64,000 nt of DNA from a virus (taxonomy: Duplodnaviria; Caudoviricetes): IMG/VR virus record IMGVR_UViG_3300017909_004705; one strand, 5' to 3'. The translations under genes were made by a program, and so were the position numbers. The notes below the pieces were generated by a model. The model was not told the origin of the DNA. It saw only the letters and a list, made by a program, of their open reading frames with translations, and did not search any database. This document shows, one piece after another, positions 20,536 through 41,520 of this stretch. Each line of letters begins with the position of its first letter. Within the stretch, counting starts at the first letter, position 1.

Positions 20536-21772
20536 GTATCTAAATAAAGACAAGGTTACCACCTTACCTCAATCAAACTTAATCGAAAAATACAAAAAAT
20601 CAAATATTTGTCATCTGCCCTGGACCGGGATAGAGACTAATGAAATCGGGCAATACAAACCATGTTGTCTGTACGAACATCCATTGAAAGACAAAAATAA
20701 ACAAGAGCTAAACACAGTAAGCCATTCGATAGATGAAGTGTTCGAATCACAGGACATGATAGACCTCCGAGACCAATTCATTAAAAATCAAAAGCCAACC
20801 GGTTGTGAAAGATGTTGGAAAGAAGAAGAATCAGGCAAGACATCTCTAAGAATGCTGAGTTGGGAAAAATCTAGTGTGCTAGGCGAGTATCATGTAAAAA
20901 AAAATATAACAGCATCTCGAACTCTTGGTTTGAAGTTAGGGAACACATGTAATTTAAAATGCCGTATATGTGGACCAGAAGCAAGTTCACAATGGGTAAA
21001 TGAATTAATAAAAGAAGACCCCACGCAGAAGACACGGCTTCTTGCCCTCAGTGAAAAAACTAGATGGCCGCGGAAACAAAACAAACTGTTTGACAGCATC
21101 GGAAGTTCATTGAAGGATATAAGGTATTTGCAAATCACCGGTGGCGAACCTTTCATGATCAAAGAACAGTTTGACATGCTTGAAAAATGCGTAGAACTTG
21201 GGGTGGCAGATAAAATCGACGTGCATTACAATACCAACGGCACACACTACCCAGAACATGCTCTAAAGAATATTTGGCCACACTTTAAAAGAATAGAAAT
21301 AGCATTCAGTATTGATGGTATAAATCAACGCTTTGAATATCAAAGGCACCCTGCTGTTTGGGACGAAGTGGATAACAACATCAAGAAGATCAGTACATCA
21401 GGACTGAAAAATCTCAGCACACAGATTTCTACTACAATTAATCTCTTCAGCATCTATTATCTAGATGAACTTGCTGAAAAAGTGGACGCATGGAACCCCG
21501 ATTACTGGCATATCAATTGCCTACATAATCCAAAAGAGTTTGACATCCAGGCACTCCCTGTGAACGTTAAAGAAAGTATACGTCAAAGACTAGAAAAATG
21601 TAGACATAGGAAAAATGAAATTCAAACTGCAATTAAATATCTAAATCAACCTAGCAAAAATACTTCAACTGACTTGGCCGAACGCAGGAAAAAGAAGATA
21701 ATTTCCACTGATAACACCAGGAATGAAAGTTTTGACAAGGTATTTCCTGAAATGTACGATTTAATTTGGTAA
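20528..21772 (+). CDS. Radical SAM protein with N-terminal SPASM/twitch-like domain
   Basis: CHLPW..PCC..CERCW N-terminal cluster; CNLKCRIC; TGGEP; SIDG. Confidence 0.85.
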   Translation: MSKYLNKDKVTTLPQSNLIEKYKKSNICHLPWTGIETNEIGQYKPCCLYEHPLKDKNKQELNTVSHSIDEVFESQDMIDLRDQFIKNQKPTGCERCWKEEESGKTSLRMLSWEKSSVLGEYHVKKNITASRTLGLKLGNTCNLKCRICGPEASSQWVNELIKEDPTQKTRLLALSEKTRWPRKQNKLFDSIGSSLKDIRYLQITGGEPFMIKEQFDMLEKCVELGVADKIDVHYNTNGTHYPEHALKNIWPHFKRIEIAFSIDGINQRFEYQRHPAVWDEVDNNIKKISTSGLKNLSTQISTTINLFSIYYLDELAEKVDAWNPDYWHINCLHNPKEFDIQALPVNVKESIRQRLEKCRHRKNEIQTAIKYLNQPSKNTSTDLAERRKKKIISTDNTRNESFDKVFPEMYDLIW

Positions 21773-23879: not shown

Positions 23880-24743
23880 ATGAAAAATTATTATGACATA
23901 CTAGGTGTGTCTGAAGATGCTTCTTCTGAGCAAATAAAGAAAGCGTTCAAAGAGATTGCCAAGAAAGAACACCCTGACAGAGGTGGCAACGAAGCAGTAT
24001 TCAAAGAAGCCAACGAGGCATACGACACACTTAAGAATTCACAAAAAAGGCACGACTATGACACAATGCGAAAGTTTGGTAGCACACAGGGAGGTGGACA
24101 ACATCCATTCTTTAATGAAGACATATTTGGAGATTTCTTTTCAAACTTTGGCAACGGAGACATGGACTTTGGCGGCAGGTTTAATTTTACCCAAGGTCCA
24201 GGCAGGACTCGTACATTCCGCTCACAACAGAGGGGAAATAGGAACGTGCAGGTAAGAATGGCTTTATCTATCAAAGAGGCCATGATGAACAATGAGAAAA
24301 CAATCAATTACAAACTACCAAGTGGGCGAGATGAGTATGCGACTGTAAAAATTCCTGCAGGTGTACAACATGGAGTAACATTCAAGTTCTCCGGCATGGG
24401 GGATGACTCTATAAAGAATGTTCCACGTGGTGACCTAATGGTCTTGATGAGTGTTTTGGATTCAGACGGTTACACAAGAAAAGGCAATGATTTGCACACC
24501 GATAAGACCATAGACTGTTTTCAAGCAATAAGGGGACACAATTTCAATCTCAAAACACTAGATGATAAAATAATTAATGTTAAGGTACCGGCTGGAACAC
24601 AACCTGGGACCATACTTGCCGTAAAAGGTAGAGGCATGCCGGTGCACAAAACAGTAGGCATACGTGGTAACCTATACGTGAAAATACACATTTTGATACC
24701 ACAACTGTCAGCACAGGATTTGAAAAAGATAAAGGACCTATGA
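23880..24743 (+). CDS. dnaJ: Class B J-domain chaperone (DnaJ/CbpA-like, no Zn finger)
   Basis: YYDILGV, HPD, G/F-rich linker, C-terminal DnaJ_C motifs. Confidence 0.9.
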   Translation: MKNYYDILGVSEDASSEQIKKAFKEIAKKEHPDRGGNEAVFKEANEAYDTLKNSQKRHDYDTMRKFGSTQGGGQHPFFNEDIFGDFFSNFGNGDMDFGGRFNFTQGPGRTRTFRSQQRGNRNVQVRMALSIKEAMMNNEKTINYKLPSGRDEYATVKIPAGVQHGVTFKFSGMGDDSIKNVPRGDLMVLMSVLDSDGYTRKGNDLHTDKTIDCFQAIRGHNFNLKTLDDKIINVKVPAGTQPGTILAVKGRGMPVHKTVGIRGNLYVKIHILIPQLSAQDLKKIKDL

Positions 24744-25237: not shown

Positions 25238-27583
25238 ATGTTAGAAGCAAACGAAGGACTAGAAAATATATTTGAGAATGCCCTCAAAGAAGCAGAGAAA
25301 AGGAAACACGAGTACGTAACAATAGAACACGTGCTACTGGCATTGATCAAGGATGAATCAATCGGAACTGTGTTGCATGACTTCAAAATACAGGTTGGCG
25401 CCTTGATAAAAGACGTCGAAGATTATCTCGATACAAAGTGTAATGACATCATAACAAAAAGCAAAGAGCCAATGACTCCAAGGAAAACTGCTTCGTTGGA
25501 GAGGCTGATGAACAGAGCGTTCACCCAAGCACTGTTCCAAGGCAGGCAGGATGTCAGTTCAATTGACATTTTAATATCTATATTTTCTGAGAAAAAAAGT
25601 TACGCGGCATTCTTTCTAAAAAAACATCAAGTCAACAAACAAGACTTGATCGATCTAGTTTCAACCGAAACAATACTAGACGAAGGAATGTCACAAATCG
25701 CAGGGGCTCAACCAGGTGGGCCTGAACAAAAATTAAGACCTAATCAAGCAGATAGGATACTAAAGAGCTATTGTGAAAACCTTAACCAAAAATACTTTGA
25801 TAAGAAAATAGATCCCGTAATAGGCAGAGAACAAGAAACAAATGATCTTAAACAGATTCTTGCAAGGAGAAATAAAAACAACGTGTTGATAGTTGGTGAT
25901 CCAGGGGTAGGTAAGACAGCAGTAGTTGAAGGCCTTGCTAGGCGAATAGCCAAAAACAAAGATGATGTGCCTGAGTATCTTAAAGATCACATAGTGTGGA
26001 GTCTAGATGTAAACAGTTTGATCGCTGGCAGTAAATTTAGAGGTGACTTCGAGGAAAGATTAAAATTGATTGTCAACGCACTTGATCAAAAAGGCAAGTC
26101 TATATTATTCATAGACGAAGCACACATGATTGTGGGTGCTGGAGCCACAGGACAAGGTAACAACATGGACATGGCCAACATGCTTAAACCCGCATTGTTG
26201 AAAGGCACAATCAAGGTACTCGCTTCAACTACATGGGAAGAGTACAGAAAGTATTTCGAAAAAGATAGGGCACTGATGAGAAGGTTTCAAAGACTACAAG
26301 TAGGAGAGCCCACTAAAGAAACTGCCGTTAAAATTTTGAAGGGCGTGAAGCAATACTACGAAAAATTTCATAAATGCACAATCACAGATGAGGCATGTGA
26401 AGATGCAGTCGATTATTCGACAAAATTTATTGCAGATAAAAAACTGCCAGACAAGGCAATCGATGTGTTGGATGTTGCCTGTGCTAGGTTGCGACTGAAT
26501 GGGGTAAAGGATGGTAAGATAGACCATGACGAAATAATACACGAGATCAGCACAATGACTGGTATAAGCATAGAACAGTTGTCTCAGAAACAGGCAAGTA
26601 ACTTAAAAACTCTCGAAGAGAAAATGAAACTACAAGTTTTTGGGCAAGACAAGGCCATAAACACTATCACCGACAAGATACTAGTTGCAAGGGCGGGACT
26701 AAAGAGTCTGACAAAACCAGTTGGGTCATTCCTGTTCTTGGGACCAACAGGGTGTGGTAAGACAGAAACTGCAAGACAACTTGCAAAAACATTGGGCGTT
26801 GAACTGATCAGGTTTGACATGTCAGAGTATCAAGAGAAACATTCAATTGCTAAACTTATTGGATCGCCACCTGGTTACGTTGGATATGAAGATTCAAACA
26901 TGGGTGGTGGTATGTTCATTAACGAAGTTGAAAAAAATCCACACGCAGTTGTGTTATTCGACGAAGTAGAGAAAGCACATAGAGATGTGTCAAACATGCT
27001 TCTACAAGTGATGGATTATGGTACCGTGACTGGATCTAACGGTAAAAAAGCAGACTGTAGAAATATCACCCTAATTATGACATCTAACCTAGGGGCAGAG
27101 GAAAACGAAAGAAATAATATTGGCTTTGGCAAAAGTGAAAGAACTGGCGAGGACGACAAAGCACTTAAGAAATTTTTCCCACCTGAGTTCCGAAACAGAC
27201 TAGACGCAGTAATTAAATTTGATAAACTAGGTAAAGACACTATGAAGTCTGTAGTCAAGAAGTTCTTGCTTGAACTGAACACGATGACTATTGAGAAAGA
27301 TGTTGAAGTCAATGCTACAGACAAAGCAATCGAATTTTTAATGAAGAAGGGCTTCGATTCTAAACTAGGTGCAAGACCATTACAACGTGTGATCGATGAT
27401 GAGATTAAAAAACCTCTATCTAAAATGATGTTGTTCGGTGAACTTACAGAAGGCGGAATGGTAGAAGTTGGACTTACAGATGACATTGTTCCGAAATTGA
27501 CAGTAAATTTCAAGGCTAAGAAAGCATCTAAAATAATGGAGCCGGAAAAAACTAAAATGTCTGATGAGAAAAAACCACAATAA
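25238..27583 (+). CDS. clpA: ATP-dependent Clp protease ATPase ClpA
   Basis: Clp N-domain; Walker A motifs GDPGVGKT and GPTGCGKT; IGF loop; no ClpB M-domain. Confidence 0.9.
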   Translation: MLEANEGLENIFENALKEAEKRKHEYVTIEHVLLALIKDESIGTVLHDFKIQVGALIKDVEDYLDTKCNDIITKSKEPMTPRKTASLERLMNRAFTQALFQGRQDVSSIDILISIFSEKKSYAAFFLKKHQVNKQDLIDLVSTETILDEGMSQIAGAQPGGPEQKLRPNQADRILKSYCENLNQKYFDKKIDPVIGREQETNDLKQILARRNKNNVLIVGDPGVGKTAVVEGLARRIAKNKDDVPEYLKDHIVWSLDVNSLIAGSKFRGDFEERLKLIVNALDQKGKSILFIDEAHMIVGAGATGQGNNMDMANMLKPALLKGTIKVLASTTWEEYRKYFEKDRALMRRFQRLQVGEPTKETAVKILKGVKQYYEKFHKCTITDEACEDAVDYSTKFIADKKLPDKAIDVLDVACARLRLNGVKDGKIDHDEIIHEISTMTGISIEQLSQKQASNLKTLEEKMKLQVFGQDKAINTITDKILVARAGLKSLTKPVGSFLFLGPTGCGKTETARQLAKTLGVELIRFDMSEYQEKHSIAKLIGSPPGYVGYEDSNMGGGMFINEVEKNPHAVVLFDEVEKAHRDVSNMLLQVMDYGTVTGSNGKKADCRNITLIMTSNLGAEENERNNIGFGKSERTGEDDKALKKFFPPEFRNRLDAVIKFDKLGKDTMKSVVKKFLLELNTMTIEKDVEVNATDKAIEFLMKKGFDSKLGARPLQRVIDDEIKKPLSKMMLFGELTEGGMVEVGLTDDIVPKLTVNFKAKKASKIMEPEKTKMSDEKKPQ

Positions 27584-30283: not shown

Positions 30284-30291
30284 TATAAATA
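30284..30291 (+). promoter_or_regulatory. T4-type late promoter TATAAATA (representative of a recurring TAAATA core)
   Basis: TAAATA also at 397, 11774, 17896, 19142, 19612, 21780, 28471, 32160, 35594, 36039, 37952, 38983, 39633, 44769 and 60775, each just upstream of a gene start. Confidence 0.75.
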
Positions 30292-30298
30292 TGCTTGT

Positions 30299-30655
30299 AT
30301 GAGAGCATCACAATTTATCAAAGAGGGAATAGACTCAGACGCAGTAAACGAGCTGGATACCTACATAATGAACAGTGAGGAACTGTATCGTAGACGTTTT
30401 ATGCCAATAATCTCAAACATCAAAAGAAAACTGGCCAAGGATGTGTATGATCACGAAAAAGCACAGAAGTTGTGGATGTATTTGGTTGATGATGCCGCGA
30501 AAGAATACGTAAAAGAATTTGGTTCACAACAAGATGATGTCAGCAACATGTTTCCAAAGGAAACAAGAATGCAAGTTGCAAGGAATATCTCAGACAGAGA
30601 ATTAGAAAATATCAAACAAGGCGAATACGATGCACCTCCGGGAACTGTTTCTTAG
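30299..30655 (+). CDS. Hypothetical protein with MRASQFIKE leader (putative internal head protein)
   Basis: TATAAATA promoter; leader ends in Glu. Confidence 0.6.
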   Translation: MRASQFIKEGIDSDAVNELDTYIMNSEELYRRRFMPIISNIKRKLAKDVYDHEKAQKLWMYLVDDAAKEYVKEFGSQQDDVSNMFPKETRMQVARNISDRELENIKQGEYDAPPGTVS

Positions 30656-31790
30656 AGAGGACGATCGAGCAACCGCAGTTTTTGCCTTTGGCCGATTTAA
30701 TCCTCCTACAATAGGACACCAAAAATTATTAGAAAAAGTAATTGCAATGACCAAACAGGTCAACGGCAAGGGTTACATATTCCTTTCACAGAAACAAAAC
30801 AACAAAACGGATCCGTTGAATTTCAAAGAGAAGCAGGACTATCTTAAAATGTTTTATCCTCAACTAGCAATAGGTGATGCTGGAGTAAAAACAATCATAC
30901 AAGCACTGCAAAAAATACAGGCAGAAGGTAGGACAAGAATTGTCATGGTTGCGGGTTCAGACAGAGTTGAAGAATTTGCAAAACTATTGAACCAATACAA
31001 TGGTAAACCAGACAAAGCAGGTAATGATCTTTACAAGTTTGATTCCATAGATGTTGTCAGTGCTGGTGAAAGGGATCCGGATCAAGAGGGGGCTTCCGGA
31101 GCCTCGGCTTCCAAGGCAAGAGAACTGGCGGCCAAAGGTCAAGAGCATGAATTTTCCAAAATTATCATGGGTGGAGATACTGGTAAAAAGTTATATGATA
31201 TTATCCAGGACAGACTTGGTAAGCAGATTGACGAAAACAACAAGAAGTTGTATAATGAAAACATGGAAGACGCAAAACCAACTGTATATCTTGACATGGA
31301 CGGAGTCCTGGCAGACTTCTTTGGTGGGGTGGAAAAGATGTATGGTGTTGAACATTGGAAACAACTGACCAACGACAAGACAAAAGATCTCAAGAAAGAA
31401 GTCATTGACAGGATCACAGGCACTGACTTTTTTGCTACGTTGCCGAAATTTCCGTCCGCAGACGAATTGATCAACATGGTTAAAAAGTTCACAGGGGGAA
31501 AATTCAGCATAAACACATCGCCACTGCGAGGCGACCACGAGAATTCAGGCAAATACAAAAAAGTTTGGATATCAAACAACATCGAACAGCCTGACGAGAT
31601 AATAGTAACAGGAAGAAAAGAATCATATGCCAAAGACAAAGGCACTGGCACTCCTAACATATTGATAGACGACAGACCTATCAACATACAAAAGTGGCAA
31701 GCGGCAGGTGGATATGGCATTCTTTATCAAGCAAACAGAGATTCACTGGACAAAGTGAAGAAAGGACTAGAAGGATATGCCAAAGTTTAG
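30630..31790 (+). CDS. Fusion of a HIGH-type cytidylyl/nucleotidyltransferase and a HAD 5'(3')-deoxyribonucleotidase
   Basis: FGRFNPPTIGH and VAGSDR in domain 1; YLDMDGVLADF and LIDD in domain 2; MHLRELFLRE leader. Confidence 0.85.
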   Translation: MHLRELFLREDDRATAVFAFGRFNPPTIGHQKLLEKVIAMTKQVNGKGYIFLSQKQNNKTDPLNFKEKQDYLKMFYPQLAIGDAGVKTIIQALQKIQAEGRTRIVMVAGSDRVEEFAKLLNQYNGKPDKAGNDLYKFDSIDVVSAGERDPDQEGASGASASKARELAAKGQEHEFSKIIMGGDTGKKLYDIIQDRLGKQIDENNKKLYNENMEDAKPTVYLDMDGVLADFFGGVEKMYGVEHWKQLTNDKTKDLKKEVIDRITGTDFFATLPKFPSADELINMVKKFTGGKFSINTSPLRGDHENSGKYKKVWISNNIEQPDEIIVTGRKESYAKDKGTGTPNILIDDRPINIQKWQAAGGYGILYQANRDSLDKVKKGLEGYAKV

Positions 31791-31956
31791 CGGAATAAAC
31801 AGACCATACGCGGCAGGAGAAATTGAAAAAACTCCACAGGAAAAACAGAGAGAACTGGATGAGAAGATGAAAGCATTCTTGGCCAAGGGTGGTAAGGTAG
31901 AGAAAGTCAAAGCACACAAACCAACAAAGCAACAATTGAAAGATTGGACAATCTAG
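31777..31956 (+). CDS. Small protein (59 aa) with a SutA-like RNA-polymerase-binding motif, not in the ORF track
   Basis: AAGGA SD; translation MPKFSG...QRELDEKMKAFLAKGGKVEKV... Confidence 0.55.
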   Translation: MPKFSGINRPYAAGEIEKTPQEKQRELDEKMKAFLAKGGKVEKVKAHKPTKQQLKDWTI

Positions 31957-32162
31957 TGGACGAACTGGAAAGAATAAAGCAATTAGCAGGTGTGGGTAAG
32001 CACCAAGGGTCTTCTATGGGAGAAAACCTTTCTTATACAGGCACCGAAAAGTCCCAATATCAGAGAAAACACAACATTAAACCGGGTACAGACGAGTGGT
32101 TCCAGTTATGGTTCTCAAGACCAAAACTCACTGGTGAAAACCCAATGCCTAAAAACAAATAA
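31956..32162 (+). CDS. Small hypothetical protein with DELERIKQLAG motif
   Basis: GTG start overlapping the previous TAG; IKPGTDEWFQLWF module. Confidence 0.6.
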   Translation: MDELERIKQLAGVGKHQGSSMGENLSYTGTEKSQYQRKHNIKPGTDEWFQLWFSRPKLTGENPMPKNK

Positions 32163-32173
32163 ATACTCGCAAT

Positions 32174-32908
32174 ATGCGAGCCATTGAATTCACAGAAACA
32201 AAATGCCCTCGAACAAGAGCAAAAGAATGTTCTTGTAGCAAGGTAAAAAGCATCACAGAAGCGGAACAGACCACTGTGGCACAGTGTATGCTTGAGCATT
32301 CAGACACTGTGAAAGGCACTATACTGCTCATACAGGCCCCAGGAACACCAACTCTCATAAAAGGAACCATAACAGGATTAGAACCTGGCCTACACGGCTT
32401 CCACATACATGAGTTCGGTGACATGAGTGAAGGCTGTAAGTCAATGGGCGGACACTACAACCCAGATGGTGTTGACCATGGTGACATTGAAAAGGGACAT
32501 GTGGGTGATCTAGGAAACGTTTTAGCAGACGAATCCGGCGTAGCGAAATTTAGTATCACAGCGAAACGTGTTGATCTACTTGGTGAACGTTCTGTGATAG
32601 GAAGAGGTCTAGTAATACACGCTGACGAGGACGATCTTGGCAAAGGTGGAGATGCTGAAAGTCTTAAAACAGGCAACGCCGGTGATAGATTGGCCTGTGG
32701 TGTCATTGTTGCTAGGTCTGAAGAGATAGCAGAGGCGCATGGCGGTAAGCACACAACCAGTGGAAGAAGCATGACCAAGGGTGAAATGAATAAAAGAGAG
32801 AAGATTGTCAAAGGTATGAAAAAAGACAAGGCAGGTTTCAAAAAGAGATATGGCAAAGACGCAGAAGCGGTGATGTACGCCACAGCAACTAAACAGGCGA
32901 TGAAATAA
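32174..32908 (+). CDS. sodC: Cu/Zn superoxide dismutase with N-terminal leader and C-terminal basic module
   Basis: HGFHIHEFG, GGHYNP, HVGDLGN, VIHADEDDLG and GNAGDRLACGVI motifs. Confidence 0.93.
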   Translation: MRAIEFTETKCPRTRAKECSCSKVKSITEAEQTTVAQCMLEHSDTVKGTILLIQAPGTPTLIKGTITGLEPGLHGFHIHEFGDMSEGCKSMGGHYNPDGVDHGDIEKGHVGDLGNVLADESGVAKFSITAKRVDLLGERSVIGRGLVIHADEDDLGKGGDAESLKTGNAGDRLACGVIVARSEEIAEAHGGKHTTSGRSMTKGEMNKREKIVKGMKKDKAGFKKRYGKDAEAVMYATATKQAMK

Positions 32909-33816
32909 TGAAATTTTTAATTTTCAATGGCAGTTTAAAACCGGACGCAGAATCAAACACATTCGCTGTTTGCAAGATGGCACAACTGGCATTTGAAAAA
33001 TTGGGACACAGTTGTGAGATAGTAACTATGCGTGAACTGGACTATGAAGGTTCAACTGATGACGTTAACGATGATCTAAAACCTTACATCATGAAAATGT
33101 TTGACATGGACGGAGTTCTGTTCGCAACTCCAATCTGGTGGGGGACACACAGTTGCCACATACAGGCAATGCTGGAAAGATTAGACTTTATTTACAGTTG
33201 GGCCAAAGACAACAAGTATCAACCTTTTTACAACAAGGTTTTTGGAACATTGGTGTCAGGCGGGGGAGATGGATTCCAACACATACACGGAGTATTGTAT
33301 TCCGCGGCAAGTAACTTTGGTTTCACGGTGCCACCACAGTGCAACATAGAATCAAAAGCACAGGGCATAGAAGAAATTAAAGACGATGAAGACACTTTGA
33401 ACCAAGTTAAGAATTGCACAATCAACATGGTGACATGGGCAAGTATACTCAAAGCGGCACAACCCAGTAAAAATGCTAGACATGGATCTGTTGATATCAA
33501 CGAAAGCCTAAACGAAGGAAAAAGGATACCACGTAAAAAAGGACAGAAGAGAAAAAGCAAAAAACATAGTGACCTATACACCGATGAAGATCCAAAGGGC
33601 ACGATACATGGATTGGGTTTCAAGGATGAAGCCACAGCAAGATCAAGCGTGGCGAAGATAAGGAAGTCAGGAAGATCACACGCACACAAGATACAGGCGG
33701 CGGTGGCAATGGAGCAGAGAGCGAGAGCGGCAGGAAAGTCAGGACCAGCGGCGATATACAGGAAATACATCAACTCCATGAAGAAAAAAACTAAAGCCAA
33801 GAACAAGAAAAAATGA
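32908..33816 (+). CDS. NAD(P)H-dependent FMN reductase / multimeric flavodoxin-like domain fused to a basic C-terminal module
   Basis: FNGSLK...SNT, FATPIWWG, ERLD, SGGGDG; after SLNE comes a SDLYTDEDPKGTIHGLGF module. Confidence 0.8.
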   Translation: MKFLIFNGSLKPDAESNTFAVCKMAQLAFEKLGHSCEIVTMRELDYEGSTDDVNDDLKPYIMKMFDMDGVLFATPIWWGTHSCHIQAMLERLDFIYSWAKDNKYQPFYNKVFGTLVSGGGDGFQHIHGVLYSAASNFGFTVPPQCNIESKAQGIEEIKDDEDTLNQVKNCTINMVTWASILKAAQPSKNARHGSVDINESLNEGKRIPRKKGQKRKSKKHSDLYTDEDPKGTIHGLGFKDEATARSSVAKIRKSGRSHAHKIQAAVAMEQRARAAGKSGPAAIYRKYINSMKKKTKAKNKKK

Positions 33817-34052
33817 AAATAAGAGAAATACTTGCCACAAAGTACGTACATCCTGATGTTGACAAAATACTTAAAAAATATGAAAAGAGAGCAAAGGGTA
33901 GAGCAAGAATGGGATATCATTCGATGATGGCATATCCTTACAGGGTAGAAGGTAAAAAATGGAGCAGGAAGTATAAAAAATCAATCAATTGTGCAAATCC
34001 AAAAGGCTTCTCACAAAAGGCCCACTGTGCAGGTAGGAAGAAAAAGAAATGA
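33813..34052 (+). CDS. Basic hypothetical protein, MKIREI leader, Cys/His module
   Basis: KWSRKYKKSINCANPKGFSQKAHC module. Confidence 0.65.
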   Translation: MKIREILATKYVHPDVDKILKKYEKRAKGRARMGYHSMMAYPYRVEGKKWSRKYKKSINCANPKGFSQKAHCAGRKKKK

Positions 34053-34744
34053 AGATAAAAGAATTTATCATAATGCCTCACACAGCTGACAAAATGGGTT
34101 TAATACACAAACCAGGTGTTGGTCCAAATAACAGATTTGGTTTCAAAAACGTTGGCAATAATAAAGCAAATGAATTAGAAGAAACCAAAGAGGCGCCACC
34201 CGGCACTTATTTTACAAAGACAGGAAACCTCGTTAAAGGCCGTCTTACCAAGGCCGCTAAGGAGAAAGGAGCCAGAGAAACTGATCCAAAGGATAAACAA
34301 AGGTCAAAGGTACCGCCAGTCACGCAGAGAAATGAAGCAAGAGGATCATGTTGGCATGGATACCAACAAAAAGGATACAAGAAAAAAGGCAACAGGATGG
34401 TTCCTAACTGTGTCAAAGAAGAAGCCGCGGGAGTTGGCATAGTTACCAAACAGAACGCTACCAAGGATGTACCAGTCGGTGGCGAATACATGAACGTCAA
34501 GAAGCTAGGTTTAGGAAAAGGCAAGCCAAAAACAATGCGAGAAGAATGGGAAGAGTTCAAGGAAAATTTCGCAGATAAGAAAGTAAAAGGAAAAAGTAGA
34601 CCAGGCCGTGTAAAACGTGCTGGTGCAAGTTGTAAAGGCTCAGTCACATCATTGAGAGCAAAGGCCAAGAAGTACGGTGGCGAGAAAGGCAAAATGTACC
34701 ACTGGTGTGCCAACATGAAGTCAGGACGCAAAAAGAAGAAATAA
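34049..34744 (+). CDS. Multi-module basic protein, MKIKEF leader
   Basis: Modules separated by Glu, including CWHGYQQKG...VPNCVK. Confidence 0.7.
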   Translation: MKIKEFIIMPHTADKMGLIHKPGVGPNNRFGFKNVGNNKANELEETKEAPPGTYFTKTGNLVKGRLTKAAKEKGARETDPKDKQRSKVPPVTQRNEARGSCWHGYQQKGYKKKGNRMVPNCVKEEAAGVGIVTKQNATKDVPVGGEYMNVKKLGLGKGKPKTMREEWEEFKENFADKKVKGKSRPGRVKRAGASCKGSVTSLRAKAKKYGGEKGKMYHWCANMKSGRKKKK

Positions 34745-34754
34745 TTACTTCTAT

Positions 34755-35621
34755 ATGAAGTACTTGTTAGGCATAGGATTTGCAGTCACACAGAAATATA
34801 AAAAAGATCCCATAGTAAGAGTAAGCATAGACAACAGGTTCGTAGACGAATTCACTGTCAGTGATTACCCTTATCATGATAAAGAGTGGATGCAGGATCT
34901 CGATCCATGGGTCTACAAGGCACCATTCACAGACTGGATGAATCATGCAAAACCATGGGAAAAAATATCTATAAAAATGTGGGGCACTTTTCCAAAAAAA
35001 TTTAACTTGTATGTCATCGATGAAGCACACTTAAAACATAAAAAACAACTTGTAATCGATATAGCGAATTCTGACAGCAATTACACCAACGGATTCATGA
35101 CAAAATCAACCCTTCTAGATTTCAGGGCGTTTTTGCTTCCTTTAAAATATCTTAAATTTTTTTACCATGATGGTTATAAAATAAGGAAAGATTTCAATGA
35201 AGATATTATTGATGATGCATTTGACAGTGAAAGATATTTTGATCCAGAGGGTATAGAGGATAACAATTTCAAGATAGCCAATGAAAAAAGATATTATATG
35301 GTACAAGGTGTTGTTAGCAACGGTGCCTTGGGTAAAAATATTTTAGTTAAGAAAATCGAAGGTTATCCATTTGCACATGATATTTTTTGGAACGGGAAAC
35401 CGCTTGACACTTGGGAGTTTGGTGGCAGTGGGAAGTTAACCATGAATTTGGTAACAAAAACATCAGGCACGGTGTTGTTTGATCCAAAAGATGCGGAAAT
35501 TTTAAAAATGCAGAATGAGAAAATAGTGGCACAAAGACCTGGTTTCTACATATCCCAGAAATTCTTTAGCATGGTTCACCAGAATATGTTCGATAAATAC
35601 CTTTACAATGAAAATCTTTGA
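34755..35621 (+). CDS. Hypothetical protein (AT-rich)
   Basis: 288-aa ORF; ATAATTA promoter variant upstream. Confidence 0.6.
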   Translation: MKYLLGIGFAVTQKYKKDPIVRVSIDNRFVDEFTVSDYPYHDKEWMQDLDPWVYKAPFTDWMNHAKPWEKISIKMWGTFPKKFNLYVIDEAHLKHKKQLVIDIANSDSNYTNGFMTKSTLLDFRAFLLPLKYLKFFYHDGYKIRKDFNEDIIDDAFDSERYFDPEGIEDNNFKIANEKRYYMVQGVVSNGALGKNILVKKIEGYPFAHDIFWNGKPLDTWEFGGSGKLTMNLVTKTSGTVLFDPKDAEILKMQNEKIVAQRPGFYISQKFFSMVHQNMFDKYLYNENL

Positions 35622-35880
35622 GATCATATCACGCCAGATCAAAGAGCAGGCCACTGCTGGTGCCACAAGTGCAGGCAACATAGCCACAGTTACCTCGCCA
35701 CATATCGCGATAGGCAAAGATAGATTCTCCAAAGCCTACTCAGGTTCACCTGGGAAGTCAGGAACCAGGGCTCCGAGATTACCAAAAATAGTGCAACCAA
35801 AAAATCCAGATGGAACTGCCAAAGGTGCACACAACCTACCCGGCGTAAATCTCATGGGTGGTCCACTGGTCAAGAGATAA
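35608..35880 (+). CDS. Hypothetical protein, MKIFEII leader
   Basis: TAAATA upstream; IKE/QATAGATSAGNIA. Confidence 0.65.
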   Translation: MKIFEIISRQIKEQATAGATSAGNIATVTSPHIAIGKDRFSKAYSGSPGKSGTRAPRLPKIVQPKNPDGTAKGAHNLPGVNLMGGPLVKR

Positions 35881-36041
35881 TGGATACACTAGTACTTAAA
35901 AAAGAATGGATAGTCAAATGCCTCAACTGTGGCAATGACGCACATGAAGGCATTTTATATAGGACAGAAAAGGATTTTGACGGCAGAGAGTACAAAATAG
36001 AGGTGTGCAGGCAGTCAAGGCACGAAGGCGAAACAGTATAA
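35880..36041 (+). CDS. Small putative Zn-binding protein (53 aa), not in the ORF track
   Basis: TAATG coupling; CLNCGNDAH...C. Confidence 0.5.
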   Translation: MDTLVLKKEWIVKCLNCGNDAHEGILYRTEKDFDGREYKIEVCRQSRHEGETV

Positions 36042-36049
36042 ATATTGAT

Positions 36050-36472
36050 ATGAAGATACAGGAAATCACAGAAGGCGCTGAAATGATAGCGTACCACAAA
36101 CATCCAACACAGCAGAATCTATGGACCTTCCCAGACGCATACAAAGACGACGAGGAAGTTGAGAGCCCATACATGAGCAACGCAAGTATGAGACAGTTCC
36201 TTGACGCACTTGGATATGACAGTGATTTCGAAGACATGAGTCCAGTGCCAGCAAAAGAATTCATAGCGAGAACCACACAATGGTTGCAGAAGAACATTGG
36301 CAAACCATCGCCAGAAGAACCAGCAACAGTTGATAAATCAGGTGGTGGAGCGACAATGATAGGTGGTGGCAGACCCGAAGGTTACATGAACCAGATGGTT
36401 AAAGCACACAACGAGATAGCGAGAAAAGTTTTAGCAAAATATCCTGAAGTAACACACTTTGGATTCAATTAA
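36050..36472 (+). CDS. Hypothetical protein, MKIQEITE leader
   Basis: Start re-assigned to ATG 36050, 5 nt after TAAATA. Confidence 0.65.
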   Translation: MKIQEITEGAEMIAYHKHPTQQNLWTFPDAYKDDEEVESPYMSNASMRQFLDALGYDSDFEDMSPVPAKEFIARTTQWLQKNIGKPSPEEPATVDKSGGGATMIGGGRPEGYMNQMVKAHNEIARKVLAKYPEVTHFGFN

Positions 36473-36473
36473 T

Positions 36474-37937
36474 ATGAAGATAAAAGAATTTCAACACCAA
36501 CCAGTCAAGCCTGACACATACGAGGCTTCAATGGCCCTTAACCAGTTGATGAGGATTGGCAAACACGCTATCAAACTGCACAACATGATCGACGATGCCA
36601 CAGAGATGGAGTCATGGGTCGCCAAGAAGATCGACCTGGCAGGTGACTACGTGAAGAAAGTGTACAACTACACAGAAGGCGAGAAGGCCGGCCTATACGA
36701 TGACGGTGGCATGACGGAAATTAAAAAAATGCCAAAAGGCACAGGAACCATGTATGGGGAAGACGCAGGCGACATTGGAAATGAAATTGCGAAAATGTAT
36801 GACACCGCATACGAATACATCAACGACAGCAGTGACAACCCGAGCGACATCGAATCAGACTACAAGTTTGGTTACAACGACGATGACAGCATGGAGGCAG
36901 AAGACCTAGCGGCGGCATTCAGAAAAGATTTAAAAACTGGAATGGCCTTGCAAAAGCAATTACAAGCACAGAGAGAAAAAGAAGGACGTGAGGGCGACTG
37001 GGATCCATTCAATCCTGAGTCAATGTATCATAATGAATTGAAAGCATTGATGTCAAAGGCCAAAGGTGAATCAGTTTCAGAAGACGCAGGCGAGGGACAC
37101 ATGAGCAAAAGCACACTGTATCACACTGCCAAGTATGCGATTGCATTGATGGACATGATCAAACCAGGTGATGACCTAGAGGGTTGGGTGCAGAGCAAAC
37201 TGAACAAGGCCGCGGACTACCTACAGGGTGTGTACAACTACGAGGAGTACCAAAAGTTAAATCCATACAGAGAAGAACTTGATGCGTCTCTGATGCAGAA
37301 ACACGCACAGGTGGTGCAGAAAAACATAGACGAGATTCTAGCAAAGGAAACAAAACTAGACGACATCGACACCAAACCAGGCATGATGAGGATACTGGCC
37401 AAGAGAGTCAACGAAGTTGAAAAAGAGATTGCCAAGGAAACAAGGAAAAAGACAGACGAAAGCGGTATATTATATAGAGCAGGCGTAAAGAAATACGGCA
37501 AGGCGGGCATGAAGGCCATACAGAGTGCGGCAGGTAAAGGTGCCTCACACCAAGAGATCGGAAAAATAAAAGACAAGCATCTAAAAGATGCTGAGGATCT
37601 AGAAGAAGGATTAAAAGATTGGGCTAGGAATCTAGCGGCGGCTGGTGTGATTGTTGGGGCAGTTGCAGGCTTGGGCTCAATACAGAATGCCATTGACAAC
37701 ACTGTACCTGCTGTCAAAGCCATGAACACAGCCTACGAAATGGCCATAGATGCTGGCAATGATGAATTGGCCAAAAACATAAAAAATGACATATCCGCAG
37801 TCAAGGTAAGGTTAGATAGTGGTAAAGACTTAAATTTTGTCAAGGCGATGCAGGAAAAATATGCCAAATTTATACAGACCGAAGGATTGGCATACGAATC
37901 AAGACTTCAAGTGCAACTAAATCAACAACTTAAATAA
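36474..37937 (+). CDS. Multi-module protein, MKIKEF leader, with two copies of a ~50-aa helical repeat
   Basis: E.WV..K...A.DY...VYNY repeat twice; modules after TDE/S and LEE/G. Confidence 0.7.
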   Translation: MKIKEFQHQPVKPDTYEASMALNQLMRIGKHAIKLHNMIDDATEMESWVAKKIDLAGDYVKKVYNYTEGEKAGLYDDGGMTEIKKMPKGTGTMYGEDAGDIGNEIAKMYDTAYEYINDSSDNPSDIESDYKFGYNDDDSMEAEDLAAAFRKDLKTGMALQKQLQAQREKEGREGDWDPFNPESMYHNELKALMSKAKGESVSEDAGEGHMSKSTLYHTAKYAIALMDMIKPGDDLEGWVQSKLNKAADYLQGVYNYEEYQKLNPYREELDASLMQKHAQVVQKNIDEILAKETKLDDIDTKPGMMRILAKRVNEVEKEIAKETRKKTDESGILYRAGVKKYGKAGMKAIQSAAGKGASHQEIGKIKDKHLKDAEDLEEGLKDWARNLAAAGVIVGAVAGLGSIQNAIDNTVPAVKAMNTAYEMAIDAGNDELAKNIKNDISAVKVRLDSGKDLNFVKAMQEKYAKFIQTEGLAYESRLQVQLNQQLK

Positions 37938-37962
37938 AACTAGAACAAATATAAATACTCAT

Positions 37963-38835
37963 ATGGCACAAAAAAAATCAGCAGATTCAAGTTTCAGAGA
38001 CCTAGTAGCTCGTTTGAATGCTATGAACAATGTTACTCCTGAAGAAGAAAGAGCACAACTTATGGAAGCGGCGGGCAAAGCACCAAAAGTGTTAGATGAC
38101 AAAGATATTTCATTGGCTGACATCGCAAAACTGGCAGGAATAAAAGAATACGTTGAGCCTGTAAAAGTATCGGCAAAAGCAGAAAAATTAGTTGAGTCGA
38201 TCACGGAAGAGCCAAAATCAGAATCAGTCATAACAAAAGCAATCAAAGAGTCCGACGCTGATGATTCGATTGCAACCACAATCAAAAAAGAAGTAAACGA
38301 AGAAGTAAACAGACTCGAAAAAATCGCTGAACTAGAAGCACAGTTGGCGGAACTTAAAACTGAGCAAAAAGAAGAACAGACTTATGACTCAAAATCATTC
38401 AGAGAAGTTATCACAAAAGATATCGCAGAGTATGTCAAAAACGCGGAAGATACTCAACTTGTGGAACTTTACAACACAATATCGGACAATGAAGCAGTTT
38501 ACAATGAAGAATCATCAAGCATTCTTATCAAGACTCCAGAAACTACTGAGATCATAGCAGACGCTGAAAAGGCCGAAGCACCAGCAGAAGAAGAACAAGT
38601 TGACGAAAAAGTAGTGGACGGTGTGCAAACTGATAGAAACACATCTGAGCCACACTCGAAAGAAAAAGAAGACGAAAAGGAAGCAGAGGACAAGTCCGAC
38701 GAGAAGGATGACGCCGGTGAAGTTCCAATGCTTGACAAAGAATTCGACGATGACGATGAGATGGGCGAAGATGTTGAATTGGAAGCGCCAGCCGAAGACA
38801 AGTTCACAAACGATTTAGATCCAACAGAAAAATAA
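37963..38835 (+). CDS. Acidic coiled-coil protein, prohead core/scaffold-like
   Basis: Very Glu-rich; IAKLAGIKE motif; TATAAATA promoter. Confidence 0.55.
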   Translation: MAQKKSADSSFRDLVARLNAMNNVTPEEERAQLMEAAGKAPKVLDDKDISLADIAKLAGIKEYVEPVKVSAKAEKLVESITEEPKSESVITKAIKESDADDSIATTIKKEVNEEVNRLEKIAELEAQLAELKTEQKEEQTYDSKSFREVITKDIAEYVKNAEDTQLVELYNTISDNEAVYNEESSSILIKTPETTEIIADAEKAEAPAEEEQVDEKVVDGVQTDRNTSEPHSKEKEDEKEAEDKSDEKDDAGEVPMLDKEFDDDDEMGEDVELEAPAEDKFTNDLDPTEK

Positions 38836-38859
38836 TACTAGCAGATAACTACAGTTACT

Positions 38860-38979
38860 ATGTTGACATGGTTCCTATTAGGTATTTTGATTGGTGTTTT
38901 TATAAGATGCTTATCTCAGCCTTACAAATCTGAAGAGGATAAATTCAAAGATCCTTGGAACTGGACAACTTTCGGGTAA
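38860..38979 (+). CDS. Small membrane peptide (39 aa), not in the ORF track
   Basis: MLTWFLLGILIGVFIR...; GATAACTA upstream. Confidence 0.4.
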   Translation: MLTWFLLGILIGVFIRCLSQPYKSEEDKFKDPWNWTTFG

Positions 38980-38993
38980 TAGTAAATAAGTGT

Positions 38994-39635
38994 ATGCAGT
39001 TGCACTTGACAGATAACAAATTTGACACAAATCCGCATTGGCATGAACGTATAAAAAGCATATTCGCATGTCCACCCAAAGAAGTGGTAGAGATGTTTGA
39101 CCAGAATGGATATGATCTAACAAAACTAGAACAACTGTACGCGGTGGCCAATGGTGCAACCGTCACCAAACACAGGAACTCCGAACACATCACACTGCGT
39201 CAGCCATGGTTCACTGATGACTCACCAGACTCAGGCCCACACATCAACCATGCCTACATGTTTGAGAGAAAAGGCTACACCGGTGACGCACTACAACAAC
39301 TGTCCACGTGGGCAGGCTACAGGCCACACTTCCAGAAACTGATAGCCATGCGACCAAAATGGGGACTGGATTTCTCAATAGACTACTGTGACAGGGACGG
39401 CAACGTGTTCGAACTGCTACACTGGGAATATGATGGATTCGAATATCAAGAGATAGCAGACAAAAAGGAGAAGATGGAAGGATTCTTGTTGAATCAAGAC
39501 TGGGACGAACGGGCAAAGACCATGCTGGAACGCAAGGATGAATGGCATAAACTGGGCTTTTTTGAACAGAGCGAATGGAAAACTAGGTTCTTTGGCATAG
39601 ATAAAGAACGTTTCAAGATGGTGTTGTGGAAATAA
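38994..39635 (+). CDS. Hypothetical protein
   Basis: ATG 5 nt after TAAATA; globular composition. Confidence 0.65.
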   Translation: MQLHLTDNKFDTNPHWHERIKSIFACPPKEVVEMFDQNGYDLTKLEQLYAVANGATVTKHRNSEHITLRQPWFTDDSPDSGPHINHAYMFERKGYTGDALQQLSTWAGYRPHFQKLIAMRPKWGLDFSIDYCDRDGNVFELLHWEYDGFEYQEIADKKEKMEGFLLNQDWDERAKTMLERKDEWHKLGFFEQSEWKTRFFGIDKERFKMVLWK

Positions 39636-39644
39636 ATACTGCAA

Positions 39645-40463
39645 ATGAGCTCGATACCCTACAACTACGGAAAATACATAGATGACAAAGTCAGCATGAC
39701 TGACCAAGGTCATGTTGACTCAGCCAAACAGATACAGTCGCCGGCAAGTGCAGGTAGCAGGGGACTAGCAAAGACAACACAATTCACAAACGACCGGACA
39801 CAGATGCAGATGGGCAATTCAACGATAGCAGAATCAATGGTAGAAATAAGAAACATACTAAACAGGATCGACGGTGTAAACGCACCGGTGCAGGAAAAAG
39901 AATTCAACCCCAACGATGAACGTGATGAAGCACCAAGAGAAGGTGATGTGGTCAATCACAAAGACCTAGGCAAAGTATCAGTGATGAAAGTCACAGGTTC
40001 AGATCAGATGGGACAGCCAGCAGAATACATAGTGCAGGCAAAATTATCATACGATGAACTAATGGGTGACGTTGAACTTGGAAAATTTGAATCCTATGAA
40101 CCATTCCCAGAAGCAGACGAATTCGACATAGAAGAAGATGAAGATTTTGAAGAAGTGTTGGGTCCATTAGGTTTCCCAGAAGACGAGACAGTATTATTTG
40201 ATGCAGAATACAGGGGCAGGAAAGTCCCACTTAACAAACCAATGCGTGGTGATGTAAAGAAATTTAAAGTTTATGTTAAAGATCCAAAAACTGGCAACGT
40301 TAAAAAAGTCAACTTTGGACACGGTGGTACAAGTGCAAAAAGAAAGACTATGAGAATTAGAAAATCTAATCCTAAGGCAAGAAAGAGTTTTAGAGCACGT
40401 CATAATTGTGCAAATCCAGGACCAAAGACAAAAGCAAGATATTGGAGTTGTAGGAAATGGTAA
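39645..40463 (+). CDS. Multi-module protein with C-terminal basic Cys/His domain
   Basis: Acidic linker, then AEYRGRKV...RKSFRARHNC...ARYWSC module. Confidence 0.7.
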   Translation: MSSIPYNYGKYIDDKVSMTDQGHVDSAKQIQSPASAGSRGLAKTTQFTNDRTQMQMGNSTIAESMVEIRNILNRIDGVNAPVQEKEFNPNDERDEAPREGDVVNHKDLGKVSVMKVTGSDQMGQPAEYIVQAKLSYDELMGDVELGKFESYEPFPEADEFDIEEDEDFEEVLGPLGFPEDETVLFDAEYRGRKVPLNKPMRGDVKKFKVYVKDPKTGNVKKVNFGHGGTSAKRKTMRIRKSNPKARKSFRARHNCANPGPKTKARYWSCRKW

Positions 40464-40645
40464 AAATTAAAGAAGTAGAAGGCATCACTGAAGCAGAGTT
40501 TGAAATATTCGCAGAGAAGAAGGATGCCTGCTATCACAAAGTGAAAGCAAGATATAAAGTTTGGCCATCAGCCTATGCCTCTGGTGCTCTAGTGCAGTGT
40601 CGTAAAAAGGGTGCGGCCAACTGGGGTAACAAGAGCAAAAAATGA
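40457..40645 (+). CDS. Small basic protein, MVKIKE leader
   Basis: DACYHKVKARYKVWPSAYASGALVQCRK module. Confidence 0.65.
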   Translation: MVKIKEVEGITEAEFEIFAEKKDACYHKVKARYKVWPSAYASGALVQCRKKGAANWGNKSKK

Positions 40646-41520
40646 AGATAAACGAACTTAACGAATCACCAGACAGAGACTACGTCAATCTTCCCAAGGA
40701 AGATATAGAAAGACTGCTACAGAAGTTCTTACCCGACTGGGAATACAAAGATAACAGTTTACAGAAAAGATACAAGTTTGAAGACTACTTTGAGGTTATA
40801 GAATTTTTGATCAACACGATCAAGCCTCAGGAAAAATTAGATCATCATGCAGACCTAGGTGTGTTCTACGATGAGGTGCTAGTAAAGGTATACACACACA
40901 GAACAAACGACGTGACAGACTATGACTTCATGGTTGCTGTTCAGATGGACATGATAGCCAAAATGAAACATGGTGCAATCAATCCAAACTACGACCTTAA
41001 TGCATTAGTCGACGAAGGTACCAGATGTTGGAAAGGTTACATGCGTAAAGGATTCAAAACAATGTTTGGCAAAAGGGTACCTAACTGCGTTAAAAGAGAA
41101 GGCAGGTTCTTTGTAAATGACGCTTTCGGAGAACAAGTTTTCGAATCAACTACAAAGGAAGATGCTTTAGATTTTTTGAGGCAGAACTATTTAGACCTAA
41201 AAACCTGTGCTGTGCATGACAACATATCAGAATCAAATCATTCCGGCCTAAGAGCATGGTTCGGTAAAGGCAAAAAGGGTGGTGCCGGAGGCGGCGGTTG
41301 GGACAGATACAACACCAAAGGCGAACGTATAGGTAAGTGTGGTGACAGGAAAAAAGGTGAAGGCAAACCTAAATGCCTGTCCAAAGCCAGAGCGGCATCA
41401 TTGAGAGCATCAGGTGGTAAGAAAGCCATAGCGGCCGCTGTGAGGAGAAAGAGAAGAAAAGACAAAAATCCTGACAGACGTGGTAAAGCAATCAACGTGG
41501 CAAATAAGAAGAAAAAATAA
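40642..41520 (+). CDS. Pterin-4a-carbinolamine dehydratase-like domain fused to basic modules, MKINELNE leader
   Basis: LPDW...YKF..Y...DHHAD...YTH PCD motif; CWKGY...VPNCVK and GLRAWF modules. Confidence 0.75.
   Translation: MKINELNESPDRDYVNLPKEDIERLLQKFLPDWEYKDNSLQKRYKFEDYFEVIEFLINTIKPQEKLDHHADLGVFYDEVLVKVYTHRTNDVTDYDFMVAVQMDMIAKMKHGAINPNYDLNALVDEGTRCWKGYMRKGFKTMFGKRVPNCVKREGRFFVNDAFGEQVFESTTKEDALDFLRQNYLDLKTCAVHDNISESNHSGLRAWFGKGKKGGAGGGGWDRYNTKGERIGKCGDRKKGEGKPKCLSKARAASLRASGGKKAIAAAVRRKRRKDKNPDRRGKAINVANKKKK

Follow-up and report, generated by a model that had tools for sequence, protein, structure and literature searches.

Related N-terminal leaders and glutamate-joined modules in a late gene island of an uncultured T4-like phage: a candidate system for loading proteins into the head

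Introduction

Why do ten neighbouring phage genes, whose products are otherwise unrelated, start with related short peptides, and why are the parts of several of these products joined just after a glutamate? Both questions are raised by an island of 17-18 open reading frames (ORFs) at positions 30299-41520 of a stretch of 64,000 nucleotides from an abundant, uncultured T4-like jumbo phage of marine origin (IMG/VR record IMGVR_UViG_3300017909_004705). This whole stretch is called the window hereafter; all its genes are on the + strand. An earlier note had proposed that the island encodes a modular cargo system, i.e., enzymes and small basic peptides loaded into the head, cut apart there and injected with the DNA. 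The present analysis leads to the conclusion that the island probably represents the internal-protein and capsid-targeting system of T4 in an expanded form that uses polyproteins, its members being late-expressed, head-internal proteins.

The capsid targeting sequence of T4 belongs to textbook knowledge and concerns a handful of coliphage proteins. The internal proteins (IPs) IPI, IPII and IPIII and the protein Alt carry this sequence and are processed by the prohead protease, gp21 (Mullaney and Black 1996, as reviewed in PMC9026906, PMC3012670). For packaging, the 10 N-terminal residues of IPIII are enough, the tag is all that the internal proteins of T-even phages have in common, and it is possibly a general way of loading proteins in T4-like phages (PMC9026906, PMC3012670).

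Two large and syntenic relatives, G002 (196 kb) and G003 (138 kb), serve as references for the window, to which G002 is 70-80% identical in nucleotides over its whole length. The genes of the prohead protease, of the scaffold and of the capsid protein are read in relatives, which stand in for the 64-kb window in this respect. ORFs of the island are named by their first position, and a slash in a motif marks a joint or a predicted cut.

Occurrence and specificity of the leader

The ten leaders are MRASQFIKE (30299), MHLRELFLRE (30630), MRAIEFTE (32174), MKIREI (33813), MKIKEF (34049 and 36474), MKIFEII (35608), MKIQEITE (36050), MVKIKE (40457) and MKINELNE (40642). Six of these ORFs, within 33813-41520, begin MKIxE[FILV], and the four others have related leaders of 8-10 residues. 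All ten N-termini listed in the earlier note are present in the sequence, and the signal is stronger than first reported. The strict motif M[KR][ILV]xE[FILVM] heads 6 of the 17 island ORFs and none of the 74 other ORFs of the window (Fisher, 1.9e-5). These six N-terminal occurrences are to be compared with the 0.06 expected from the internal frequency of the motif (Poisson, 7e-11).

When the window, G002 and G003 (~400 kb) are read in six frames, the strict motif followed by an open frame is found 20 times, of which 19 are in the island. The sole match outside it is an 80-amino-acid (aa) gene (MKLMEFF) placed directly after the portal gene. The more distant lineage L218 shows this arrangement too. 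The 80-aa protein gives no alignment with T4 gp68.

Three forms of the leader can be described: MKIxE[ILFV]xE, MRAxxF[IT]xE and MxLxELFLRE. Related loci contain 122 leader ORFs. I-x-E occupies residues 3-5 of all MKI leaders and [ILFV]-x-E residues 6-8 of 31 of the 92 distinct leaders; the other forms end in IKE, LRE or FTE, i.e., the Leu/Ile-x-Glu motif of gp21 is found in the leaders. The codons used in the 92 distinct leaders are mixed (AAG 38, AAA 36; ATA 41, ATC 19, ATT 16; GAA 74, GAG 18), and the comparison of the DNA upstream of leader ORFs reveals no similarity. The conservation is thus at the protein level, and the synonymous variation indicates that selection acts on the protein. 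The same two facts rule out a repeated DNA cassette as the origin of the shared starts. A scan of IMG/VR with a DNA pattern encoding MKINEIxE finds at least 118 stretches; among the 117 matches listed, 100 are at genuine ORF starts, on many unrelated proteins.

The propeptides of T4, read from NC_000866, are MKTYQEFIAE/A for IPII and IPIII and MKTFKEF...ITE/A for IPI; gp24 starts MAKINELLRE/S and Alt MELITELFDE. The likeness to MKTYQEFIAE pointed out in the earlier note holds: MRASQFIKE/G, MHLRELFLRE/D, MKINELNE/S and MKIKEF of the window are of the same kind.

Leader bearers of the relatives include a GNAT-like protein and, at L102:10973-14644, a chain of 1224 aa (MKLSEF...) with RelA/SpoT-type HD, poly(A)/CCA-polymerase head and NT5C domains. 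At L167:173-1063 and L090:5842-6123 the leader MKI(N/S)EII runs straight into a twin-arginine (Tat) signal, for which the Pfam match in L167 is TAT_signal, 7.6e-6. This signal could mean that the cargo is exported to the host periplasm after delivery, or could merely be a long n-region.

Glutamate at the joints between modules

The ten xxE/ sites quoted in the earlier note are all present in the sequence. A general enrichment in hydrophobic-x-E is not observed, the density in the island (0.021) being not raised with respect to that found elsewhere (0.019-0.020). The Glu signal is specific to the junctions between modules and does not lie in the overall density of hydrophobic-x-E.

Related contigs offer many natural exchanges of modules. 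The CW module (GTRCWKGY...) follows LVDE/ behind a dehydratase in the window and follows directly MKIYEITE/ or MKINEILE/ in G002 and G003. In each of its 11 upstream contexts, of which about 7 are independent, the NFAD tail comes after E; these contexts include the flavin mononucleotide (FMN) reductase in G002 (HLNE/) and a leader standing alone (MKISEITE/). DAGEGHMSK is preceded by E in 12 of 13 contexts and, in the family of the 487-aa protein (ORF 36474), a variable insert lies exactly between MTE/ and E/DAGEGHMSK. The FMN reductase has in relatives four alternative C-termini, all joined after ..NE. In the alignment of 17 dehydratase polyproteins E8 is invariant, E125, E153 and E197 are at least 90% conserved, and the module between two of these residues is exchanged. 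An automated scan of the starts of homology blocks with unrelated upstream sequence gives E as first shared residue in 97 of 445 cases against 36.5 expected, the blocks being mutually non-independent; most of the blocks with the highest numbers of distinct contexts start with E.

As a free-standing protein, starting MAKYxGRxV, the phrog_7595 module exists in a pelagiphage podovirus, a siphovirus, a roseophage and an archaeal spindle-shaped virus. Five T4-like phages were examined (C48C1, HTVC008M, Melnitz, the window and G002), and in all of them an extension ending in ..[AS]E/ comes right before the Tyr or Phe of the module. This extension fits a release of the module from a pro-protein. A search of the Atlas with this module gives viral hypothetical clusters only.

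Head genes in the relatives and copy of the capsid cleavage site

A Peptidase_S77, i.e., a prohead protease of the gp21 family, is encoded in G002, G003 and G004, and a capsid protein of the gp23 family in G002 and G003. The head module of G003 has the order: portal, 80-aa MKLMEFF protein, 205-aa ORF (weak Pfam matches only), acidic gp67-like protein (by eye), protease, scaffold and capsid protein.

The alignment of the capsid protein of the relatives to T4 gp23 places YLAE/QSTAGATSAGNVATL at the cleavage region, i.e., a predicted L-x-E/Q site; the G002 version is YLSE/QATAGATSAGNVATL. ORF 35608 contains MKIFEIISRQIKE/QATAGATSAGNIATV and copies the predicted cleavage site of the capsid protein plus the next 13 residues, i.e., its mature N-terminus. 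This module of ORF 35608 recurs in relatives behind other leaders.

The scaffold of G002, G003, L218 and L174 ends, at its very C-terminus, in a second motif, [LI]xx[IL]x[KRQ]LAG[ILV] (in short, [RK]LAG[ILV]). The motif is also present in ORFs 31944 and 37963 of the window and in several island proteins of G002; as a working hypothesis, it may be a second route into the prohead. The complex predicted for the G002 capsid protein and a small ORF with this motif has a median of 0.29, the mark being 0.32, which speaks neither for nor against an interaction. The motif is encountered besides in two late proteins (707 aa and 363 aa) which flank the large-terminase gene of G002 (30670-35534), the 707-aa protein ending in a second, similar motif, ARITQLANYQ.

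Late promoters

The late promoter motif NATAAATA is found 18 times on the + strand of the window and not once on the - strand, each time just upstream of a start. All occurrences lie within 1-40 kb (span 395-39638), i.e., among the tail and baseplate genes and the island; there is none in the replication module. Six are in the island: TATAAATA at 30284-30291 (7 nt before ATG 30299), 36037-36044 (5 nt before ATG 36050) and 37950-37957 (5 nt before ATG 37963); AATAAATA at 32158-32165 (8 nt before ATG 32174) and 39631-39638 (6 nt before ATG 39645); GATAAATA at 35592-35599 (8 nt before ATG 35608). All are on the + strand, and this promoter content argues that the island is transcribed late.

The earlier note placed the leader ORFs mostly behind such promoters. 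This is exact for 4 of the 10, which are directly behind NATAAATA; the six others are downstream in the same transcription units, and for four of these six (33813, 34049, 40457 and 40642) the start codon overlaps the preceding stop.

The T4-type promoter NATAAATA is often just 5-10 nt from the ATG, without a Shine-Dalgarno sequence (e.g., 19140, 28469, 30284, 36037, 37950, 39631). With such a spacing, many late mRNAs should therefore be leaderless or nearly so.

Homologues in cyanophage virions

The proteome of CsCl-purified virions of S-CREM2 lists ORF154 (cytidylyltransferase), ORF155, ORF156 and ORF160 (PMC10665884, Table 3). NMNAT-like proteins were also detected in the virions of S-SCSM1 (ORF91) and S-CBWM1 (PMC9602691). 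Both papers report the detection without connecting it to a targeting propeptide (PMC10665884, PMC9602691).

ORF 30630 has 33% identity over 155 aa with S-CREM2 ORF154, which starts MKNFSSFLTE/A. The enzymes of S-RIM8, S-SSM4 and P-RSM3 start MKKFS[AD]FL[TK]E/A, and that of phage B3 starts KKYLEFIIE/A; each of these N-termini is nearly a copy of the T4 tag. In the Rak2-like phage XbC2 the cytidylyltransferase begins with the catalytic core itself. The window enzyme is homologous to the virion-detected NMNAT-like enzymes and has, like them, a 10-residue N-terminus resembling a capsid targeting sequence; it differs from them by its fusion to NT5C.

A second connection is provided by the DUF5872-type module of ORF 40457, which is present in 365 phage records, almost all of T4-like cyanophages. 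S-CREM2 ORF160 (gp160) is a 297-aa chain of WF, CW and DUF5872 modules, the C-terminus of which is 79% identical to the module of ORF 40457.

The DUF5872-type module of the window (40520-40642) reaches 88% identity over ~40 residues with T4-like cyanophages, while the polymerases are less than 60% identical. This similarity points to a very strong constraint or to a recent exchange.

Proposed mechanism

The short N-terminal propeptide would act like the T4 capsid targeting sequence, taking its bearer into the scaffolding core of the prohead, where the T4-type prohead protease would remove the propeptide by cutting after Glu. The larger members would be pro-proteins, i.e., an enzyme or a head module strung to small, very basic modules with two cysteines. 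Their joints, of the hydrophobic-x-Glu type, would be cut by the protease during head maturation, so that the modules would be freed inside the capsid. This head-internal cargo would be delivered into the host.

Targeting followed by proteolysis explains together why the tag is so specific and why a head-module protein carries it, as well as the copy of the capsid site, the Glu joints and the cyanophage proteomics. The proposal of a modular head cargo made in the earlier note is in this way partly upheld, by the specificity of the leader, the protease of the relatives, the capsid-site copy, the exchanges at Glu and the virion-detected homologues; it is weakened by the leaderless FMN reductase, by a promoter directly in front of only four leader ORFs out of ten and by the lack of a general enrichment in hydrophobic-x-E.

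Several points weigh against this interpretation: (i) targeting, cleavage, packaging, retention in the head and delivery to the host are steps which we infer for this phage and its close relatives; (ii) the protease, scaffold and capsid genes are seen in the relatives and not in the 64-kb window; (iii) the FMN reductase and several other island ORFs have no leader; (iv) the preference for a hydrophobic residue at P3 is modest (5 of 7 independent NFAD contexts), and the phrog_7595 junction ([DE]-[AS]-E) departs from L/I-x-E; (v) each conserved module could simply begin with a Glu, which would account for the shared residue; (vi) the small modules function also in viruses without a T4-type protease or head, hence independently of the packaging route, since they are free-standing in podoviruses, siphoviruses and an archaeal virus; (vii) the authors of the proteomes caution that abundant soluble proteins may co-purify with virions (PMC10665884, PMC9602691).

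A broader proposal is possible, though we lean somewhat against it: a plug-and-play cargo system would be common in one of the most abundant lineages of oceanic jumbo phages and in marine T4-like phages as a whole. Any gene product could be directed to the capsid with a tag of 8 residues or attached to its neighbour by a Glu joint open to the protease, with a peptide of the scaffold C-terminus and a copy of the capsid N-arm as two further labels. Redox and nucleotide enzymes as well as cationic two-cysteine peptides, of families spread across viruses, would enter the host with the DNA, and the puzzling non-structural proteins of cyanophage virion proteomes would be accounted for.

The logic of the T4 tag is apparently scaled up in this uncultured lineage, represented by hundreds of ocean contigs, with dozens of tagged proteins, a cargo of enzymes and chains exchanged at protease joints. 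If this is true, the cargo that marine T4-like phages bring to their hosts becomes predictable by a sequence rule, a mechanism is at hand by which NMNAT-like and other non-structural proteins come to be detected time and again in virions of cyanophages, and short tags and linkers of natural origin are available with which phage heads can be loaded with proteins. The prediction is directly testable on existing mass-spectrometry data.

Comparison with known systems

The island shares with the T4 internal proteins: (i) a short N-terminal propeptide, ending in hydrophobic-x-Glu, on unrelated proteins; (ii) a predicted late expression; (iii) a lineage with a T4-type protease, scaffold and capsid protein; (iv) a variable and partly basic gene content. 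It differs from T4 by its commonest leader, which is shorter (5-8 residues), and by the number of bearers, at least ten in one 11-kb island against three IPs and Alt in T4. Moreover, its bearers include metabolic and redox enzymes and chains of several modules, with internal Glu joints swapped between relatives. The island system is known here from its genes alone, and its proteins have no sequence homology to T4 IPs: searches with Pfam and PHROGs give no match to the IP or Alt families, and the mature parts are without homology to T4 IPI, IPII, IPIII and Alt. Homology of the cargo is not expected in a T4-type tag system, where the tag alone is conserved (PMC3012670).

In phiKZ, 201phi2-1 and SPN3US, the inner-body or ejection proteins are cut after Glu by a gp21-related protease (PMC5694885, PMC10052503, PMC9026906). 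The likeness lies in the many head-internal proteins cut at several Glu during the maturation of a jumbo-phage head, the cuts being predicted in the present case. The differences are the S/A/G-x-E motif, the long propeptides, the lack of a common short tag and the lineage of phiKZ-like phages. The island junctions have mostly I, L, V or F at P3, and the head genes are of the T4 type and not of the chimallivirus type; the island thus does not belong with phiKZ-like inner bodies.

Short peptides also address proteins to the interior of a shell in the case of herpesvirus UL26/UL26.5 and of the cargo-loading peptides of encapsulins. By analogy only, [RK]LAG[ILV] at the C-terminus of the scaffold and in island proteins could address the interior of the capsid.

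Alternative explanations

The proteins might be targeted and cleaved as proposed but act inside the head and not as effectors in the host, either as accessories of the scaffold core or as cationic counter-ions condensing the ~350-kb genome, like T4 IPII and IPIII or adenovirus pVII and pre-mu. Such a role agrees with the extremely basic products (+35 in 231 aa, +20 in 79 aa), which end in KKKK, with the scaffold C-terminal motif of the acidic protein and of a small ORF, and with the copy of the capsid N-arm by ORF 35608. It is nevertheless unlikely as the full explanation: intact enzyme domains (superoxide dismutase with a full-length Pfam match, pterin-4a-carbinolamine dehydratase, NMNAT-like) are hard to see as counter-ions. 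T4 internal proteins are moreover both DNA-bound and injected, so that the two roles are not mutually exclusive.

It is likewise improbable that the proteins are late or auxiliary cytoplasmic fusions, neither packaged nor cleaved, in which the N-terminus would serve translation without a Shine-Dalgarno sequence and with almost no mRNA leader, or stability, and in which the junction Glu would be part of the module. The A-rich start region (ATGAARATHAAYGAR), the promoters at 5-10 nt from the ATG in many late genes, the ordinary density of hydrophobic-x-E and the free-standing modules of viruses without a T4-type head speak for it. However, other late genes with nearly leaderless transcripts (28483, 37963, 39645, 19153 and 19626) do not have the motif, and only 4 of the 10 leader ORFs are placed at such promoters. 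Furthermore, the sole bearer outside the island is a head-module gene, homologues are detected in purified virions and the leader closely matches functional T4 propeptides.

Lastly, it is highly improbable that a modifying enzyme, e.g., of the radical S-adenosylmethionine (SAM)/SPASM type, recognizes the leader as its tag, as in ribosomally synthesized and post-translationally modified peptides, with the two-cysteine modules as substrates: the window does encode radical-SAM proteins at 20756-21772 and 60787-61827 (the latter with SPASM), 10 and 20 kb from the island, and an ORF with a radical-SAM-type CxxxCxxC, read by eye, is inside the island of G002, but the leader has only 5-10 residues, it heads enzymes and Cys-free proteins as well, no radical-SAM gene is within the island of the window, and matches to the tag are found in T4 propeptides and in a head-module gene.

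Genes of the island

Targeting to the head and cleavage at Glu being the preferred interpretation, the island genes, all on the + strand, can be described in order. Pfam names four enzymes among them (ORFs 30630, 32174, 32908 and 40642); for ORFs 30299, 33813, 34755, 36050, 36474, 37963 and 38955, no family is named by Pfam, PHROGs and NCBIfam. AlphaFold2 models have a mean predicted local distance difference test (pLDDT) of 46.7 for the dehydratase polyprotein (40642) and 43.2 for the 487-aa protein (36474), which is too low to place domain boundaries or to compare folds.

The first ORF (30299-30655, 118 aa) has the leader MRASQFIKE/G, near to MKTYQEFIAE/A of T4 IPII and IPIII; its homologue in L105 carries MKINEF instead. 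ORF 30630 (30630-31790, 386 aa) consists of the 10-aa leader MHLRELFLRE/D, an NMNAT-like cytidylyltransferase and an NT5C 5'-deoxynucleotidase (Pfam, PHROGs); it is the orthologue of the virion-detected cyanophage enzyme. It is followed by a basic ORF of 59 aa without leader (31777-31956), which resembles the RNA polymerase-binding domain of SutA (Pfam 28.9 bits, just below the cut-off of 29.3) and is conserved in G002. The next small ORF (31944-32162), the start of which is uncertain (putative TTG at 31944), has an N-terminal ELERIKQLAGV, i.e., the motif of the scaffold C-terminus; in the relative L158 the leader MKINEIYE precedes this motif.

ORF 32174 (32174-32908, 244 aa) has the leader MRAIEFTE/, a Cys-rich linker up to SITE/A, a complete Cu/Zn superoxide dismutase (Pfam Sod_Cu 1e-45) and a basic tail after EIAE/A. 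Its orthologues have the leader MRAxEFTE/ in several relatives, and the tail after EIAE/ is found only in the window copy. The NADPH-dependent FMN reductase (32908-33816, 302 aa; Pfam) has no N-terminal leader and a basic tail after SLNE/G. ORF 33813 (33813-34052, 79 aa, net charge +20) has the leader MKIREI and ends in a two-Cys KKKK module, which in L059 is fused behind the FMN reductase. ORF 34049 (34049-34744) is a polyprotein of 231 aa (net charge +35) made of a 42-aa head module with the leader MKIKEF, a CW module (RNE/ARGSCWHGY), a TKQN module (VKEE/AAGVG) and an NFAD tail (FKE/NFADK). ORF 34755 (34755-35621, 288 aa) has neither a known family nor a leader, and its membership of the system is uncertain.

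The bearer of the capsid-site copy (35608-35880) is a basic protein of 90 aa with the leader MKIFEII, then IKE/QATAGATSAGNIATV. A zinc-ribbon-like ORF of 53 aa without leader (35880-36041) separates it from ORF 36050 (36050-36472, 140 aa, MKIQEITE/G), the module of which forms in G002 the C-terminal portion of a protein of 594 aa, where it comes after KLAGLGE/G. ORF 36474 (36474-37937) encodes the all-helical protein of 487 aa with the leader MKIKEF and the sites TDE/S and LEE/G; it has more than 1600 metagenomic homologues, and an identical protein is encoded on a contig of 137.6 kb.

ORF 37963 (37963-38835, 290 aa) is very acidic (net charge -45), has no MKI leader and contains LADIAKLAGIKE/Y, i.e., the C-terminal motif of the scaffold. 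ORF 38955 (38955-39635, ~213-226 aa) has no known family and no leader, and its membership is uncertain. In ORF 39645 (39645-40463, 272 aa) an MSSIPYNY N-terminal part is fused through an acidic linker to the phrog_7595 module, which comes after FDAE/Y; both parts are separate genes in G002, where the phrog_7595 module has an MKINEI leader. ORF 40457 (40457-40645, 62 aa) is made of the leader MVKIKEVEGITE/A and the DUF5872-type two-Cys module. The last ORF (40642-41520, 292 aa) is a polyprotein with the leader MKINELNE/S, a pterin-4a-carbinolamine dehydratase (Pfam), a CW module after LVDE/G, a middle part after KRE/G and a WF/KKKK tail after NISE/S. The dehydratase domain is missing in G002.

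Lineage and neighbouring genes

The family-B DNA polymerase of the window is at most 50% identical to that of any of 50,697 phage records, the nearest being Phosso, Atu_ph07 and Rak2-like jumbo phages. It is also found in 411 IMG/VR contigs, and the best 80 of these 411 are 93-99% identical. CheckV estimates the 196-kb relative as 55% complete, which gives a genome of ~350 kb. Megablast of the island against the 50,697 phage records gives zero matches, and tblastn with ORF 34049 gives zero matches as well.

The window encodes a UvdE UV-endonuclease at 14973-16013. Two chaperone-related genes are in the late region just 5' of the island: a protein with a DnaJ-like N-terminus, read by eye (23880-24743), and a complete double-AAA chaperone of the ClpB/ClpA type (25238-27583; Pfam AAA_2 5e-59, Clp_N, ClpB_D2-small). 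In its island region (L131, the reverse complement of G002 155501-172000), G002 has two inserts absent from the window. The first, upstream of the island, encodes a lipoprotein-like protein of 1014 aa with subtilase-type motifs seen by eye; the second, an ORF of 394 aa with the radical-SAM-type motif CxxxCxxC, separates the cytidylyltransferase from the SutA-like ORF.

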